Assembly (NCBI GenBank): GCA_951812955.1
Contig: OX638340.1
Span: 1,440,001-1,504,000 of the forward strand
Direction: 5' to 3'
Source of the DNA: an uncultured Gemmatimonadota bacterium
GTDB taxonomy: Bacteria > JAAXHH01
Length of the DNA: 64,000 nucleotides
A model generated the notes under the pieces. It was not told the origin of the DNA and made no database searches. It saw only the letters and a list, made by a program, of their open reading frames with translations. Shown here in pieces: positions 25,493-56,639 of this stretch (its first letter is position 1; each line of letters opens with the position of its first letter). The position numbers and the translations under genes are program-made.

Positions 25493-25550
25493 TTCGGTGA
25501 AATTCGAGGCACTGTCCTCGAATGGTTCGCGCAGTATCAGCGGGAGTAGC

Positions 25551-25622
25551 TCAGCGGTAGAGCATCACCTTGCCAAGGTGAGGGTCGCGGGTTCAAGCCC
25601 CGTCTCCCGCCCTCGGACGTGG
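25551..25622 (+). tRNA. tRNA-Gly (anticodon GCC)
   Basis: Cloverleaf folded by hand: acceptor GCGGGAG/CTCCCGC, anticodon loop TTGCCAA, T-loop TTCAAGC. Confidence 0.9.
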
Positions 25623-25630
25623 CGGCATAG

Positions 25631-25702
25631 CCAAGTGGCTAAGGCACGGGACTGCAAATCCTCGATCGCCGGTTCGAATCCGGCTGCCGCCTTGCTTTTT
25701 CT
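25631..25702 (+). tRNA. tRNA-Cys (anticodon GCA)
   Basis: Acceptor GGCGGCA/TGCCGCC, 3-bp D-stem, anticodon loop CTGCAAA, discriminator U. Confidence 0.9.
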
Positions 25703-25731: not shown

Positions 25732-26424
25732 TTAAAACCTCACCTGGGCGCCCAAAACAACTCTTCGGGCATTACCCTGACCATAACGAAAATCTAAGAA
25801 TGGGACGTACGATATCCCCCTGAATTGGGAAACCGGCAGGTTCTCCCAAGTTTCTGACTTAAATACCCTGCCAGCCATTGCACCGGGCAGCCCGCCGACT
25901 AGTTGGCCCAGGATTGTATAACCGATCCAGTCACCTTTTCCCCAGTCTTCATCGGCAAAAGTAAGAAATACTGCCGCAGTGCCCAAACCCGCTCCAATGA
26001 GGTATCCCTTTCCGATGTTACTTTGCTTTCCTGCACTTCGTTCAAGCCGCGTAACTTCATTGTAGTTAAATCGCTGGATACCGCTCACACCACCACGGTC
26101 AAGTTCAAATCCTTCCGGGTCGACTCGAATGACACTTCCCGTCACCCGGTTGTTTTGATGAGTCACACGAATTCGCTGCCCTGAGTAACGATTGAATGCT
26201 ACCATCGGCCCTTTGGTGATCCTGTCGATCTCTTCCATGGAAAAAACAAACAAGTTCCCGTCTCGTGTTTCCAGTTTGACGGATTCACCAGGGATCTGTT
26301 CAACGATTACCCCCTTAATGATACTCCCATTCTTCAAGTACACGATGTCATCATTCTGCTGAGCTTGCACTTCCTCGGAAACACATAACAAGGCAACGAA
26401 CGCGATAGAAATAAACCGTAACAT
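25732..26424 (-). CDS. Secreted hypothetical protein with C-terminal glycine-zipper segment; lower-GC gene beside the tRNAs
   Basis: Signal peptide MLRFISIAFVALLCVSEEVQA; GYLIGAGLGTAAVFL / LGQLVGGLPGAMAG glycine zippers; TGGAGA SD before the ATG. Confidence 0.6.
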   Translation of the reverse strand: MLRFISIAFVALLCVSEEVQAQQNDDIVYLKNGSIIKGVIVEQIPGESVKLETRDGNLFVFSMEEIDRITKGPMVAFNRYSGQRIRVTHQNNRVTGSVIRVDPEGFELDRGGVSGIQRFNYNEVTRLERSAGKQSNIGKGYLIGAGLGTAAVFLTFADEDWGKGDWIGYTILGQLVGGLPGAMAGRVFKSETWENLPVSQFRGISYVPFLDFRYGQGNARRVVLGAQVRF

Positions 26425-26583
26425 AGTATCTCCATATTGGGATAGTCTCGCCTTGTTGCGAATGGGTTTAGACCTTATGTATTGTATTGACCTGGTTATA
26501 AAAAAGACTCCTTTCTCCTTAATTTGTTTTCAATATCGAACTATAGTACCGTTTCATTGTGGTGAAAAGCAATAACTGCGTTG

Positions 26584-26613
26584 TTGAAAATCTACACTCG
26601 CTTGTCGTATAAT
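26584..26613 (+). promoter_or_regulatory. Candidate sigma70 promoter (TTGAAA-18-TATAAT) in the AT-rich spacer, facing the BNR/PhyH/SDR genes
   Basis: Read directly; perfect -10 hexamer. Confidence 0.3.
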
Positions 26614-26834
26614 CCTGACTTGGACGAGAACGGACCAACCATTCTACCAGGAACAAACCACCCCAATACGCGTCGATAGGCGACTGCGAGACCTGCCCGA
26701 AGAGCTCGTTGACGCTTTCATACGGGCAGCAGTCGGAAGCACTCCCCAGGGCCGTCAGCCATCGGCGCAACGACGTGGAGGCCGGCATCTTTCATTTGTT
26801 TTGTGCAAGGTAGAAGCCGGGATTATCTTATAGC

Positions 26835-27842
26835 ATGGCCGAGATCGATTGGGTTCGACGAATCTACAGTGACGGCTGGCACAACGCCTTCACGGATTTC
26901 CAGCAATTCAAGGGCCGGTATTACGTTTGTTTTCGCAACGGCCTTTCCCACGTGAGCCCCGAGGGGAAGGCGGTGGTGATCGCCAGCGACGACCTGGCCG
27001 GCTGGTCGCGAGCCGGCGTACCGGTCAACACGCCGGGCGACGACCGGGATCCACACATGGTCGCGACCGAAGACAGGTTGTTTGTCTACGCCGGAAGCGT
27101 CACCCGTCCCGACCCTGGACTTACCGGCAACGACGTGGTCCGTGTTATTCGGACCCATGGTGTCTACACTCAGGACGGGGAGACCTGGTCCGATCCCGTC
27201 AAAGTCTACCGGGACGGATTCTGGTTGTGGGGTGTTGGGCGTGGAAATGACCGGTTCTACGGGCTCGCCTATGGAAACGTATCTACGGAAGGGAGTCGGA
27301 AACCGCCCGAGCTTCACCTCGTGCAGTCTACCGACGGGCTGGACTGGGAGCTTGTTTCCGTAGTCACGAAAAACGGGAGTGAGGCCACCTTCCGGATCAC
27401 CGCTAACGGCTCGATGCGCGTAGCCATCCGGGGCGGCGACGAGAATCGGTTCACCCTGGCCACCGCAAGACCCCCGTACACAGACTGGAGTCTTCAGGAC
27501 TTCGGTGAAGTGATCCCGTCACCGTTTCTTGTGGAAGTCGGCGGTGCCGAATACGTGATCGGCCGACAACACGTGCGCGGTCCAGGCGGTCCGGACGATC
27601 CAGGCGATCCGGCGGTCCGCGACCACATTGTCGACAGGCGGACGAGCATCTGGCGGGTGGAGAGCGGCGGAATCGTCCATGTCCTGGATCTGCCTTCCGG
27701 GGGCGACACCTCCTATGCGGGAGTCGTCCAGCAGGAAGACGGATCGCTGCTGATCAGCTACTATTCGCAGCACGAGGTGGAGATAGGTGAGAAACACTAT
27801 CTCTACCCAGCCAACATATATATGGTCCGGGTCAGGCTGTGA
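26835..27842 (+). CDS. BNR/Asp-box repeat protein (sialidase-superfamily beta-propeller); no signal peptide
   Basis: Asp-box motifs YTQDGETWSDP and QSTDGLDWEL. Confidence 0.7.
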   Translation: MAEIDWVRRIYSDGWHNAFTDFQQFKGRYYVCFRNGLSHVSPEGKAVVIASDDLAGWSRAGVPVNTPGDDRDPHMVATEDRLFVYAGSVTRPDPGLTGNDVVRVIRTHGVYTQDGETWSDPVKVYRDGFWLWGVGRGNDRFYGLAYGNVSTEGSRKPPELHLVQSTDGLDWELVSVVTKNGSEATFRITANGSMRVAIRGGDENRFTLATARPPYTDWSLQDFGEVIPSPFLVEVGGAEYVIGRQHVRGPGGPDDPGDPAVRDHIVDRRTSIWRVESGGIVHVLDLPSGGDTSYAGVVQQEDGSLLISYYSQHEVEIGEKHYLYPANIYMVRVRL

Positions 27843-33543: not shown

Positions 33544-33927
33544 ATGGCCGGCAAAGACAGGCGGGCAAACGGTTCCGAGCCGGATGACGCGGAATTCGAA
33601 AAGCTGCTCGACGAAATGGACGAACTGGGACGGCAAGCCGATGCCCTGCGCGCGAAGGTGAATAATCTCATCGACGAGATGCGGCAGAACGACGTCACTG
33701 CGGACGAGGAAGGCACAGCGGGCGACCTCGCAGTAGACGCGGGGGATGTCTCGGCGAGCGAGGAATCGGGCGACGCACCGGACGAACAAGAAAAAGCGGA
33801 CGGCATCCCGGCAGGCGAGGGCGAGGAGGGAAACGAGGCCGGAGATGGAGACGTCGCTGTGGATACGGACAACGCGGAGGGCAAATCGGGCGGAGAAAGC
33901 CTTGGACGAGCAAGCGGACCAAATTAG
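33544..33927 (+). CDS. Hypothetical acidic low-complexity protein (coiled-coil N-terminus, D/E/G-rich tail)
   Basis: ATG with GGAG SD 7 nt upstream; composition-biased. Confidence 0.4.
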   Translation: MAGKDRRANGSEPDDAEFEKLLDEMDELGRQADALRAKVNNLIDEMRQNDVTADEEGTAGDLAVDAGDVSASEESGDAPDEQEKADGIPAGEGEEGNEAGDGDVAVDTDNAEGKSGGESLGRASGPN

Positions 33928-33939
33928 AAGTGAAACGAG

Positions 33940-33968
33940 TTGACAAATTGAAGACATGTAGGCATAAT
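33940..33968 (+). promoter_or_regulatory. Strong sigma70 promoter (TTGACA-17-CATAAT) at the left edge of the AT-rich cassette
   Basis: Consensus -35, 17-nt spacer, near-consensus -10; about 75 nt before the 34044 ORF. Confidence 0.5.
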
Positions 33969-34043
33969 TCGCTATGAGGAATGGGTAAGTCCAATCTCGT
34001 TGATGAATAAGAGTAATAATCGTAGTGATTGTAGAGGCTCAGT

Positions 34044-34526
34044 ATGATGGCTACACAGGAAATTGAAAGTGCCAATCATATCATAAGCAAAATCGACGAG
34101 TTTCCTGATTACTTTTTAAGACAATACAGTAATGTTCAAAATGAAGCGTTACTTTCAAAAAAACTTGAATACACCGTTCGGTCGTTTAACAAGAGACTGG
34201 AAATCGCATATGAGATCTCTCATGATTTTATAGAATTCTTAAAGCAAGATGGAATAATCGATCCAGAGCAGCCGTTAGTCGGGTGTGTGCAAGAGTACGA
34301 AAAGGTTTGCTCTGAACTCTATCTATATTTCAACCAAATCCCCTCAGACTCTTTTCATTTCCCGCATATCGTTGAAAGATTAACAAAAATACTAAAAGAC
34401 TATGCTGGTAAATTCCAGGATTTACGCTGGGAGGTTATGATCCATAACGGGCTTCTTGCACCTCGGCATACAAATACATTTTCAGGTGGAGATGAGTTTG
34501 AGCAAATTTTAAAACAACGAAATTAA
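34044..34526 (+). CDS. Hypothetical 160-aa protein (low GC), upstream partner of the RelE/ParE-like toxin; candidate atypical antitoxin
   Basis: Clean ORF in a 38% GC segment; stop TAA one nt before the next ATG; no HTH/RHH recognised. Confidence 0.55.
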   Translation: MMATQEIESANHIISKIDEFPDYFLRQYSNVQNEALLSKKLEYTVRSFNKRLEIAYEISHDFIEFLKQDGIIDPEQPLVGCVQEYEKVCSELYLYFNQIPSDSFHFPHIVERLTKILKDYAGKFQDLRWEVMIHNGLLAPRHTNTFSGGDEFEQILKQRN

Positions 34527-34527
34527 C

Positions 34528-34830
34528 ATGAATTACCCCTTCGACGTTCCATCCGAATTCGTAGAACCAGATGATTCCTTCCTTGAGCAACACCAAAAAC
34601 TTCCCTCGTCTTTAAAACAAAATTTCCAAAGATTGTTAGATCAATTCAGAAATCACCGTTTAACACCCGGTCGCAGATTAAAAAAAATCGGTCCTAATCT
34701 GTTCTCGGTAAGATTAAACAGAAAATACCGTTTCGTATATGAATTGCTTTATATAGATGGAAAAGCTGTTGGAAGGCCTCTGGCCGTAGGAAACCATGAT
34801 GAAACATACGACTCGGCAAGTCGGGTTTAA
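34528..34830 (+). CDS. RelE/ParE-family toxin-like protein
   Basis: C-terminal KKIGPNLFSVRLNRKYRFVYELLYIDGKAVGRPLAVGNHDETY matches the RelE/ParE pattern (KLxG..yElRi..YRiiY.....v.il.igHR..vY). Confidence 0.7.
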   Translation: MNYPFDVPSEFVEPDDSFLEQHQKLPSSLKQNFQRLLDQFRNHRLTPGRRLKKIGPNLFSVRLNRKYRFVYELLYIDGKAVGRPLAVGNHDETYDSASRV

Positions 34831-34941
34831 TCAATGAAACGTGTTTCCCCCGTCCTCCCGGTCATAACCAACTAGACTAACATCGGGTTTGGCCGTTGGT
34901 CTTCTATTGTGTGGACTCATCATCTCGAACGGGTTTTAATC

Positions 34942-35924: not shown

Positions 35925-36584
35925 TTACCTCTTCAAACTCACGGCCACCCCGTCCCGCAAGGGGATAATCGTCGTCCAGACCTCGTCGGTACCATAGGCC
36001 TTCCTGTTGTATTCCTGGATGGCCGAGGTCCAGCGGTCGTCGGAAGGCTGCGTCACGCGTCCGCTCCAGAGCACGTTGTCGGTGATCAACAGGCCACCCC
36101 GGCGGATGCGCGGCAGCGCCAGGTCGAACACGCGGGGATAGTCGTGCTTGTCCACGTCGTTGAAGATCAGGTCGAAGCTGCCCTCGGTCTGCTCCAGCAG
36201 TTCCAGCGCGTCGCCCACCTGGATCACGACGCGGTCCGCCACGCCGGCGCGCTCGATGAACCTTCGGGCCTGGTTGGCGTTCTGCTCGCTGCCGTCGGAG
36301 TAGTAAATCCTGCCTTCCGGACCCACCGCCCGGGCGAGCCAGATGGTTGAATAGCCAATGGCCGAACCCATCTCGAACACGCGGCGCGCGCCGCTTAACA
36401 CGGCCATCTGATGCAGCACGCGGCCGACCAGGGGGCCGACGATAGGTATCCGCTCCGCATTCGCCTTTTCTTCCATTTCGGTGAGGACCTCGTCCCTTTC
36501 GGGCATCAGGTCCGTCAGATAGCCGTCCAGCGCTTCCGAGAGTACGTTGGGCATTGGGTTGTTGCTCCTGCTGTTGCGGGCCAT
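35925..36584 (-). CDS. Class I SAM-dependent O-methyltransferase (family 3, caffeoyl-CoA OMT-like)
   Basis: VFEMGSAIGYSTIWLA...DLIFNDVDKHDY. Confidence 0.85.
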   Translation of the reverse strand: MARNSRSNNPMPNVLSEALDGYLTDLMPERDEVLTEMEEKANAERIPIVGPLVGRVLHQMAVLSGARRVFEMGSAIGYSTIWLARAVGPEGRIYYSDGSEQNANQARRFIERAGVADRVVIQVGDALELLEQTEGSFDLIFNDVDKHDYPRVFDLALPRIRRGGLLITDNVLWSGRVTQPSDDRWTSAIQEYNRKAYGTDEVWTTIIPLRDGVAVSLKR

Positions 36585-36611
36585 GGTATTTCAAAGCTCC
36601 GTGGTGTCGAA

Positions 36612-54969: not shown

Positions 54970-55331
54970 TGATGCTACCTGACCTGCATATGCACGGCCG
55001 TCGTCCGATGCTTACGTCGTCCGATGCTTAATGGTGGCAGGCTGCACGCCGCCTATAGTGGCCGTGTTTCCTGCTTGAAGCGGACGAGAATTCGTTCCAA
55101 GGTGCCTGGAACCGATGAGCTAGGCGGCTTCGTTTACATCGCATGGCTCCCATGAACGTTACCCAGCTCGATCGGATTGTTTGACAACTGCACAAATTGC
55201 ACACACGCTAAGTGGTAGATATACGTTTATGACAACAATATCAAGAACAAGTATAGTAATGTCAATAGTAAATTACGTTATAACTGTTATTTCGTTAAAT
55301 AGTAGTTTAATTTAAGGAGAGTAATAAAACA

Positions 55332-55370
55332 ATGAAATACTCTGATTTGCGATTCTACAGGCTTTACTAG
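55332..55370 (+). other. 12-codon mini-ORF (MKYSDLRFYRLY) with strong RBS AAGGAGAG inside a 30%-GC segment
   Basis: AAGGAGAG-9 nt-ATG; the only well-initiated ORF in the AT-rich stretch. Confidence 0.25.
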
Positions 55371-55747
55371 CTTCAAAAACAAGGAATGGTGATACTCTAG
55401 TGACCATTTAATCCATTTTAAGATAATATTGTTTATATATAACTTTTCTTTTTATACGTCGTTCTAACCTGACCAATCTCCAAATCCGGTATGGTTTTCC
55501 TTTTTCGAATGCACAGGTTTCAATAACCCGTACTGCCCTATACTGCTTGACATTGGCATCGTTTACGGCGTAGTTTATTCCGGAATTTGTTGCGAATGGA
55601 AATTGCTGGTCGGGGGCAGTCAAGAAACGAAATACAGGATGGGAATTGGCGACCGAAATGGTAAACAACGCCTCGATCAGGGAATCAATAAACGGAGGAT
55701 AGCATCCCCGGATTCCTTCGTATCACCGGCCTGTTTAACTTAGGTGA

Positions 55748-56263
55748 GTGATCGTGCAGGTAAACAACCTGAGAGATCTTTCAGATCGCTTCGTGACCGT
55801 AGTGAGACAGTTGTGCCGTTTGACATACATCGCAAGACTGAATGAGTGGCAGGGGCTGGACATGACCGTGCCTCAGATCAAGACGTTGATTCTGATCGAG
55901 CACTTGGGGCCGCTCAGGATGGGCGCGATAGCCAGTTACCTGGGCAGCGGCCTTTCCACTACGACCACGATAGTGGATCGCCTGGTGAAAAAGCAGCTGG
56001 TTCAACGGGATTCGGATCCGAACGATCGAAGAGTCGTGATATGCGAACTGACTTCCAAGGGTCGGGATGCGACCGAGTTGTTCTGGGATCACCTGAAGAC
56101 GAAAGCGCTGATGCTTTCCGATCAGTGGGAAGTGGATCAATTCGAAAAGGTCGTCCAGGCGCTTGAACTGATCTGGGGTACCGAGGAAGCGCTTCAATCG
56201 GCATCTGATTCCGCTCCGCCCATCGTCAGCCAATCTCCCGGCGCCAAGTCATCCGCGCTTTAA
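55748..56263 (+). CDS. MarR-family transcriptional regulator
   Basis: wHTH LGPLRMGAIASYLGSGLSTTTTIVDRLVKKQLVQRDSDPNDRRV; GTG start after GGTGA. Confidence 0.8.
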   Translation: MIVQVNNLRDLSDRFVTVVRQLCRLTYIARLNEWQGLDMTVPQIKTLILIEHLGPLRMGAIASYLGSGLSTTTTIVDRLVKKQLVQRDSDPNDRRVVICELTSKGRDATELFWDHLKTKALMLSDQWEVDQFEKVVQALELIWGTEEALQSASDSAPPIVSQSPGAKSSAL

Positions 56264-56384: not shown

Positions 56385-56456
56385 TAGCGGTACGGGGAAT
56401 CGAACCCCGGTTTGATGGCTGAGAACCACCCGTCCTAACCACTAGACGATACCGCC
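56385..56456 (-). tRNA. tRNA-Glu (anticodon CTC)
   Basis: Folded by hand: acceptor GGCGGTA/TACCGCT, anticodon loop TTCTCAG, T-loop TTCGATT. Confidence 0.8.
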
Positions 56457-56568
56457 GCGTTGCTCTTGACGAAAATACCCCATTTACCGGCCATAGTCAA
56501 GTATCCGGGCCGGCTTTTATATCGCTTCGAAGACGTAAAATCCTCTACGGGCATGGCAAGAATGTGAA

Positions 56569-56639
56569 CTGGGGGGCAGGGATTCGAACCCCGATTCCAT
56601 GGTCCAGAGCCATGTGTCCTACCCTTGAACGACCCCCCA
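56569..56639 (-). tRNA. tRNA-Gln (anticodon CTG)
   Basis: U1-A72 acceptor TGGGGGG/CCCCCCA, anticodon stem CATGG/CCATG, loop CTCTGGA, discriminator G; matches the bacterial tRNA-Gln architecture. Confidence 0.88.

Follow-up and report, generated by a model that had tools for sequence, protein, structure and literature searches.

In this study, we examined a cassette of two co-oriented genes, here called A and B, in a 64,000-nucleotide stretch of contig OX638340.1 (the window), and relate its sequence, predicted protein structures and distribution to its probable function. We consider it likely that the cassette is a chromosomal type II toxin–antitoxin operon, in which B is a RelE-type toxin and A its neutraliser. 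The cassette first stands out by its composition. The segment that holds it is the lowest-GC kilobase of the window (0.404, against a mean of 0.607); in 200-nt windows GC runs at 0.345–0.41 from 33,900 to 34,800 and at 0.60–0.665 in both flanks, while GC at third codon positions (GC3) is 0.35 in the two open reading frames (ORFs) compared with 0.79–0.85 in the neighbouring PfkB and O-methyltransferase genes. These values confirm an AT-rich segment of about 1 kb that had been described from the letters of the DNA alone (hereafter the sequence-only reading). The same reading had called the two genes tightly coupled, and indeed a single nucleotide separates the stop codon of A from the start codon of B (TAA-C-ATG), an arrangement implying, as far as sequence can tell, translational coupling of B to A. 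The parts of the cassette that carry the argument are as follows.

33928..34941, + strand: AT-rich segment with the whole module inside it, bounded by two stop codons, that of the acidic-protein gene upstream and that of the convergent PfkB gene
34044-34526, + strand: gene A, proposed antitoxin, 160 amino acids (aa), acidic, all-helical
34404..34511, + strand: conserved C-terminal motif of A, codons 121-156, AGKFQDLRWEVMIHNGLLAPRHTNTFSGGDEF, proposed toxin-binding element
34524..34530, + strand: TAA-C-ATG junction, comprising the stop of A, one nucleotide and the start of B
34528-34830, + strand: gene B, putative toxin of the RelE/ParE superfamily, 100 aa, basic
34680..34687, + strand: A8 homopolymer in gene B, shortened by 1 bp in sister strains, with a frameshift of B as the result

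The two proteins and their linkage

Assignment of the 100-aa product B to the RelE/ParE toxins, first made in the sequence-only reading, holds up in both profile and fold searches. B matches phrog_1213, annotated as 'RelE-like toxin', along its full length (E=1e-7; 81 of 88 profile positions), and a profile built from 11 sequences of the B family finds E. coli RelE at 7.7e-6, again full length, and YoeB at about 1e-4. Pfam searches with members of the family return ParE_toxin (PF05016) at 3.1e-6, YoeB at 2.2e-5 and HigB-like at 1.5e-4. Taken singly, B of the window gives weaker matches: its best Pfam matches, HigB-like_toxin (E=0.006) and ParE_like (PF24732, E=0.04), are both sub-threshold, it has no NCBIfam match, and its single-sequence match to E. 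coli RelE, although full length, is marginal (E about 0.02). Because it falls below the Pfam gathering scores and has no NCBIfam match, we count B as a divergent member of the RelE/ParE superfamily that is not assignable to any named curated family.

Structurally, the AlphaFold2 (AF2) model of B, with a predicted local distance difference test score (pLDDT) of 73, shows the beta-alpha-alpha-beta4-alpha topology of the RelE fold, with helices at residues 16-21, 27-41 and 90-99 and strands at 51-55, 58-62, 67-76 and 79-89. In a Foldseek comparison with the PDB, the top 38 matches are all RelE, YoeB, YafQ, HigB or ParE toxins except for Txp40 (ranks 3-4), the matched region of which is C-terminal in the family-profile alignment; they span probabilities of 0.87-1.0 and template modelling (TM) scores of 0.40-0.63, the best lying mostly at about 1 and 0.5-0.6. 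Twelve residues are invariant over 11 members of the B family, including R62, R68 and Y94; at position 90 the residue is either H or R. In an alignment of low identity, on which the mapping rests, R62 corresponds to K54 of RelE, R68 to R61, H/R90 to R81 and Y94 to Y87, four residues that belong to the catalytic set with which RelE cleaves mRNA on the ribosome. B of the window is full length, keeps all 12 invariant residues and is strongly basic (isoelectric point, pI, 9.6), and the ratio of nonsynonymous to synonymous divergence (dN/dS) of B between species, 0.07-0.37, indicates purifying selection. Judged by these features, B is probably a ribosome-dependent mRNA endonuclease.

The partner, A, had been described as free of ribbon-helix-helix (RHH), helix-turn-helix (HTH) or Phd-like features, and our searches agree: neither Pfam nor NCBIfam gives an RHH, HTH, AbrB or Phd/YefM match, and neither profile nor fold searches connect A to a known antitoxin or to an unrelated enzyme family. 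Nothing significant was found in Pfam, NCBIfam, PADLOC or PHROGs (best E=0.08, in the range of noise), and remote homologues of A likewise belong to no Pfam family. Against all PDB chain sequences, the single protein gave no match, and profiles of 7 and 13 sequences gave coiled-coil noise only, with no antitoxin. Weak matches to Cmr5, FtsK-gamma and xenorhabdolysin, all partial and at E>0.05, were taken as noise. We also rejected A as a GGDEF protein; its tail contains the string 'SGGDEFE', but there is no Pfam match, and remote homologues do not share the string. The AF2 model of A (pLDDT 61.5) comprises four long helices and one short helix, followed by a tail modelled with low confidence (residues 139-160), the end of which is again a short helix; the model contains neither an N-terminal strand nor an HTH. 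A fold search with this low-confidence model returned generic helix-bundle matches only, and no antitoxin, enzyme or DNA-binding family.

A is acidic (pI 5.2 in the window) and is itself under purifying selection (dN/dS 0.13-0.33), and its conservation is concentrated at one end. The N-terminal domain varies between subfamilies, and the sole region conserved across all six is the C-terminal end, with the pattern FQDLRW-x-(I/V)LI-(H/R)-(D/N)-G-x-LAPR-xxx-TFSG; mean conservation is 0.67 at residues 121-146, compared with 0.34-0.45 elsewhere. We propose that A represents a new antitoxin family, and that this C-terminal motif is the part that binds the toxin.

The two genes are found together. A B-like ORF lies directly downstream of an A-like gene in 24 loci (the window and 23 others) from six subfamilies, with a single exception, L017, and this across identities that reach down to about 20% for A and about 30–40% for B. 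At 9 of the 13 loci for which junctions were listed, the genes are joined as stop-N-start; the genes of L021 overlap, and L019 and L022 have an ATG that is not in the B frame. Pairwise identities of A follow those of B closely (r=0.95 over 55 pairs), and in all 11 pairs compared the charges are opposed, A being acidic (pI 4.5-5.4) and B basic (pI 7.9-10.4). A and B are a conserved, co-diverging, linked pair.

Where the pair is broken, the loss is one-sided. Seven close-strain contigs encode an A protein 100% identical to that of the window, and B is disrupted in each. Six of them (L002-L006 and L020) give identical split matches to B, the lesions, seen in L002 and L004, being the loss of one A from the A8 run at 34680-87 and of four bases (GGCC) at 34782-85; in the seventh, L001, the start codon of B is no longer in frame with the rest of the gene, owing to a 1-bp deletion that immediately follows the ATG. 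L017 has lost its B' gene by a clean deletion of about 310 bp and keeps A' intact. No locus with an intact B and a broken A was found among the loci recovered. Such one-sided loss would be expected of a B that is harmful in the absence of A, but does not prove it.

From these observations, we propose the following mechanism. Transcription from a promoter at about 33,940-33,968 would yield a bicistronic A-B mRNA, from which A would be translated using its own GAGG and B mainly by re-initiation at TAA-C-ATG, a coupling by which the toxin would never be made without its partner. Free B, as a small, basic protein of RelE fold, would most likely cleave mRNA on the ribosome and thereby arrest translation. 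A would neutralise B by binding it directly through the conserved C-terminal motif, much of which is modelled with low confidence in isolation, and the variable N-terminal helical bundle would have a scaffolding role, in dimerisation or perhaps in sensing. The proposed binding of toxin by antitoxin in the type II manner has indirect support from the opposite charges of the two proteins, from the conserved C-terminal motif, partly of low model confidence, and from the loss of B but never of A alone.

Alternative readings of the pair

The same pair could serve primarily as an abortive-infection or anti-phage module, in which the N-terminal domain of A senses phage or stress, and B is kept inactive by the C-terminal motif until such a cue arrives. 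In mechanism this would be the same toxin–antitoxin pair in another biological role, and we regard it as unlikely. It would suit the surroundings of other family members, which adjoin restriction-modification methylases, an HNH-methylase gene, a gene for a PIN protein (PIN being a domain found in VapC-type toxins) and transposases, as well as a variable HipA-like insertion located 1.7 kb away in sister strains. A variable N-terminal domain joined to a conserved C-terminal motif also resembles the combination of sensor and neutralising element proposed for PanA (PMC10440598). Nevertheless, the module has no PADLOC match and no relatives in the viral contigs of IMG/VR, and the window's own neighbours are housekeeping-type genes.

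We give little credence to the view that B is a ParE-type DNA gyrase poison and A a ParD-like neutraliser of unrelated fold. The weak Pfam matches to ParE_like (PF24732, E=0.04, B of the window) and ParE_toxin (PF05016, 3e-6, a family member) would fit, as would the ParE structures 5cw7 and 6n90 among the fold matches of B. However, PF05016 covers RelE and ParE proteins alike, the best sequence and structure matches are to RelE, YoeB and YafQ and not to ParE, and the residues that align with RelE K54, R61, R81 and Y87 are conserved family-wide; to our knowledge, ParE toxins are generally without RelE-type catalytic residues. On this sequence and model comparison, an mRNA endonuclease is the more likely identity of B. 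Equally improbable in our judgement is that the module is a decaying remnant in the window's species, with B no longer selected and A kept for an independent function unrelated to any toxin: the identical A beside frameshifted or out-of-frame B in the close strains, the survival of A' in L017 and a −10 hexamer weakened from CATAAT to CACAAT where B is frameshifted would fit such decay, but B of the window is full length with every family-invariant residue, dN/dS of B between species is low, B is intact in most subfamilies, and toxin loss with antitoxin retention is in itself the pattern expected of a toxin–antitoxin pair.

Several observations weigh against our preferred reading of the cassette as a toxin–antitoxin operon. 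B of the window scores below the Pfam gathering thresholds, with 17.5 against 27 bits for HigB-like and 14.4 against 24.4 bits for ParE_like. Its catalytic set differs from that of RelE, since K52 of RelE is replaced by an invariant serine (S60). The model of A is of low confidence, so that the absence of fold matches is weak evidence, and a protein without a detectable DNA-binding domain leaves the usual autoregulation by the antitoxin unexplained; such domains are common, though not universal, among the antitoxins of type II systems. Further, B is inactivated in most sequenced strains of the window's species, which makes the toxin dispensable, and a separate role for A is possible. In low-coverage long-read contigs (L008, L014 and L022), some of the frameshifts may be assembly errors.

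Expression signals, age and distribution

Two features upstream of gene A bear on how the operon would be expressed.

33940..33968, + strand: sigma-70-like promoter candidate, TTGACA at 33940-45, a 17-nt spacer and CATAAT at 33963-68, 11/12 match
34034..34037, + strand: GAGG ribosome-binding site, read from sequence, 6 nt 5' of the ATG of gene A

The near-perfect TTGACA-17-CATAAT site at 33940-33968 reported earlier is present, matching 11 of 12 consensus positions. The two strands of the window together hold only four sites of this quality; when the AT-rich segment is shuffled, about 2% of the shuffles contain one as good. The −35 hexamer and the GTGAAAC upstream of it are kept in all six syntenic orthologous loci that we aligned; the −10 hexamer is not conserved among these six, and the site was not found upstream of the modules of other subfamilies. 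It probably works as the promoter of the A-B operon in the window's clade. The GAGG before A is kept in syntenic loci, and the segment contains no structured RNA that Rfam would recognise at E<=1. In strains with frameshifted B, a T-to-C change at window position 33965 (L002:2540 region) turns CATAAT into CACAAT, a sign, perhaps, that expression of the operon is relaxed or reduced. In another subfamily, that with an A' protein of 173 aa, the A' gene is preceded at a distance of about 100 nt by the perfect 26-nt palindrome TTTTACACGGGCTAGCCCGTGTAAAA (L016:3875-3900), which has an equivalent with one mismatch in L019; the palindrome could be an operator or an upstream terminator.

The 7-bp direct repeat TGAAACG, noted in the sequence-only reading at the two edges of the cassette, is present at both positions, but it does not mark the cassette's boundaries. 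There are 21 comparable repeat families in the same 1.5-kb region; the left-hand copy is part of the conserved sequence just 5' of the −35 hexamer, the right-hand copy is kept in the closest relatives only and is absent from more distant syntenic orthologues, and family members at other genomic sites share no common boundary sequence. We accordingly rejected the repeat as a cassette boundary or target-site duplication and, because so many similar families exist and the right copy is lost in only slightly more distant orthologues, treat it by sequence comparison as a product of chance.

We also considered the gene immediately upstream (33544-33927) as a third component. Its 127-aa product, which has no family assignment, combines a coiled-coil-like N-terminal segment with an extremely acidic tail (pI 4.05, net charge -26) and ranges from 101 to 127 aa among syntenic relatives. 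The gene has a host-like GC content (0.62) and is present only at the syntenic site, and we rejected it as part of the module.

Low GC had been taken as a sign that the module was acquired horizontally. For a recent arrival in the window genome, this does not hold. Throughout the window's clade, in relatives down to 74% identity in A, the cassette occupies one fixed site between the gene for the acidic coiled-coil protein and the convergent PfkB gene. Synonymous divergence (dS) is 0.15-0.90 for the cassette, similar to the 0.15-0.65 of its neighbours, the PfkB and methyltransferase genes, and GC3 of the cassette is stable at 0.33-0.39 (window, L009, L012 and L013) despite dS of 0.5-0.9. Lineage-specific synonymous changes in the cassette comprise 17 from A/T to G/C (W-to-S) and 11 in the opposite direction (S-to-W), with no excess toward G/C; those in the flanking high-GC genes are mostly S-to-W singletons (56 S-to-W to 14 W-to-S). 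Because the island is syntenic, diverges like its flanks, keeps its GC3 and shows no excess of changes toward G/C, it is, to judge from these comparisons, old and compositionally stationary, not a recent import still to ameliorate. A striking compositional island thus need not mean recent horizontal transfer: a GC3 of about 0.35 has persisted beside one of about 0.8 through species-level divergence.

Over a longer timescale, the idea of a mobile module fares better, being supported by the presence of other family members at five other genomic sites. Three loci at such sites (L021-L023) lie near genes for a transposase, a restriction-modification methylase or a PIN protein. All 11 family loci examined have a lower GC content than at least one flank, the gap to the left flank being only 0.01-0.03 in L021 and L022. 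Divergent modules, with about 18% identity in A and about 37% in B, occupy the same slot in two loci (L007:5780-7606 and L022:3720-5723), bordered on one side by a small basic ORF (80% DNA identity) and on the other by an IS1-like transposase gene (87% DNA identity), where IS denotes an insertion sequence. In L007 the IS1-family-like transposase gene is 5'-truncated; the small basic ORF, MPKGPNGEKRPAD...RRSEIGRKAA.TRWK, belongs to no Pfam or NCBIfam family. From its sequence, the slot looks like a case of cargo exchange in or beside an IS element.

The module is also rare. A word-indexed search of 5.8 billion proteins found 8 relatives of A, and there were 9 among 1.84 billion cluster representatives searched exhaustively with HMMER; the remote relatives are 22-26% identical and 135-176 aa long. 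In a species-level genome collection there were two matches, both in metagenome-assembled genomes of Candidatus Latescibacterota, and a metagenome scan revealed no relative beyond a contig already known. The A-B pair is found almost only in uncultured Latescibacterota. Neither IMG/VR viral contigs nor PLSDB plasmids contain relatives of A or B, and we rejected a phage or plasmid origin of the module on these grounds.

Combining these lines, one could go a step further and see in A a lineage-restricted antitoxin class, in which a helical sensor or scaffold that does not bind DNA is joined to a conserved FQDLRW...LAPR...TFSG clamp, a structurally new means of neutralising RelE-fold toxins, the modules being exchangeable cargo that nonetheless stays AT-rich over long vertical descent. 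We advance this tentatively, as a possibility that we do not favour on present evidence. If it were true, the stable AT-richness, with a GC3 of 0.35 in a background of 0.8, would imply an unusual selection or expression regime.

Other parts of the neighbourhood vary as well. Between the O-methyltransferase and mlaD genes (L002:5125-6996; junction at window 36575-36611), an insertion of about 1.85 kb and 47% GC is present in L002-L004, and partly in L009, but absent from the window and L001. It holds a gene for a HipA_C kinase (toxin-like) and a small ORF, and is thus another variable island of toxin-like character, 1.7 kb away from the cassette. The near-identical strains L001 and L002 match the window at 96-100% to the right of about 33,500 and at 70-85% to the left of it, in the methyltransferase and SAM hydroxide adenosyltransferase genes, a drop that indicates a putative recombination breakpoint just upstream of the acidic-protein gene. 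Two other patches of lower GC (0.49 and 0.45), at 26000-27000 and 55000-56000, adjoin tRNA gene pairs (Gly-GCC/Cys-GCA at 25540-25692 and Glu-CTC/Gln-CTG at 56385-56639); one patch holds a 230-aa ORF and the other a 171-aa ORF lacking a known family.

Comparison with known toxin–antitoxin systems

The closest parallels of the cassette are RelBE, YefM-YoeB and DinJ-YafQ, in which the antitoxin gene likewise comes first, the toxin gene second, and the two are tightly coupled. B resembles the toxins of this group in its size of about 100 aa, its basic charge, its RelE fold and the residues that align with RelE K54, R61, R81 and Y87, and A resembles their antitoxins as an acidic partner whose conserved C-terminal region is partly of low confidence in the model. 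Unlike RelB, YefM and DinJ, however, A is a 160-aa, all-helical protein with no ribbon-helix-helix or Phd/YefM domain and no similarity to them in sequence or fold; and unlike RelE, B has a serine in place of K52 and lies below the gathering score of every Pfam RelE/ParE family. With ParDE and PaaR-PaaA2-ParE2, the cassette shares the toxin superfamily and the operon layout. Like A, the antitoxin PaaA2 has no DNA-binding domain, but it is a far smaller protein; A also bears no relation to ParD, and B retains putative catalytic residues of the RelE type. Nor does a third regulator gene travel with A-B as in PaaR-PaaA2-ParE2, the upstream acidic-protein gene being found at the syntenic site only.

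HigBA systems come to mind because HigB-like_toxin is the best Pfam match of B in the window and HigB structures are among its fold matches. In HigBA the toxin gene comes first and the antitoxin is an HTH protein of the Xre type, whereas here the toxin gene comes second and its partner has no HTH. A further comparison is with the PanA antitoxins (Panacea, DUF4065) of the NetFlax partner-swap network, which are modular, combining a globular domain with a short neutralising element (PMC10440598). A matches this plan in so far as conservation peaks in its C-terminal region and model confidence is low from residue 139 onward, which would correspond to a globular, non-DNA-binding domain followed by a neutralising element, and in both cases a known toxin fold is found with an unrelated antitoxin family (PMC10440598). 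Unlike Panacea proteins, A has no DUF4065/Panacea match in Pfam, is helical-bundle-like, has been seen with one toxin family only and is restricted to Latescibacterota.

In conclusion, the type of system described here is well known, B is one more divergent member of a very large superfamily, and the new element is the A family, which is lineage-restricted and can be told by its motif, and whose modules also behave like cassettes and keep their composition with unusual persistence. Given that new antitoxin families with known toxins are found routinely, as illustrated by the 275 two-gene toxin–antitoxin combinations of a single study (PMC10440598), the conceptual advance is modest. Nevertheless, A adds to the possible partners that neutralise RelE-fold toxins an uncharacterised family with a testable 36-residue conserved motif, and does so from Latescibacterota, a candidate phylum with no cultured representatives in which such modules are almost unstudied. 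Should A bind B through its conserved tail, the pair would show how an antitoxin that does not bind DNA controls a RelE-type toxin.

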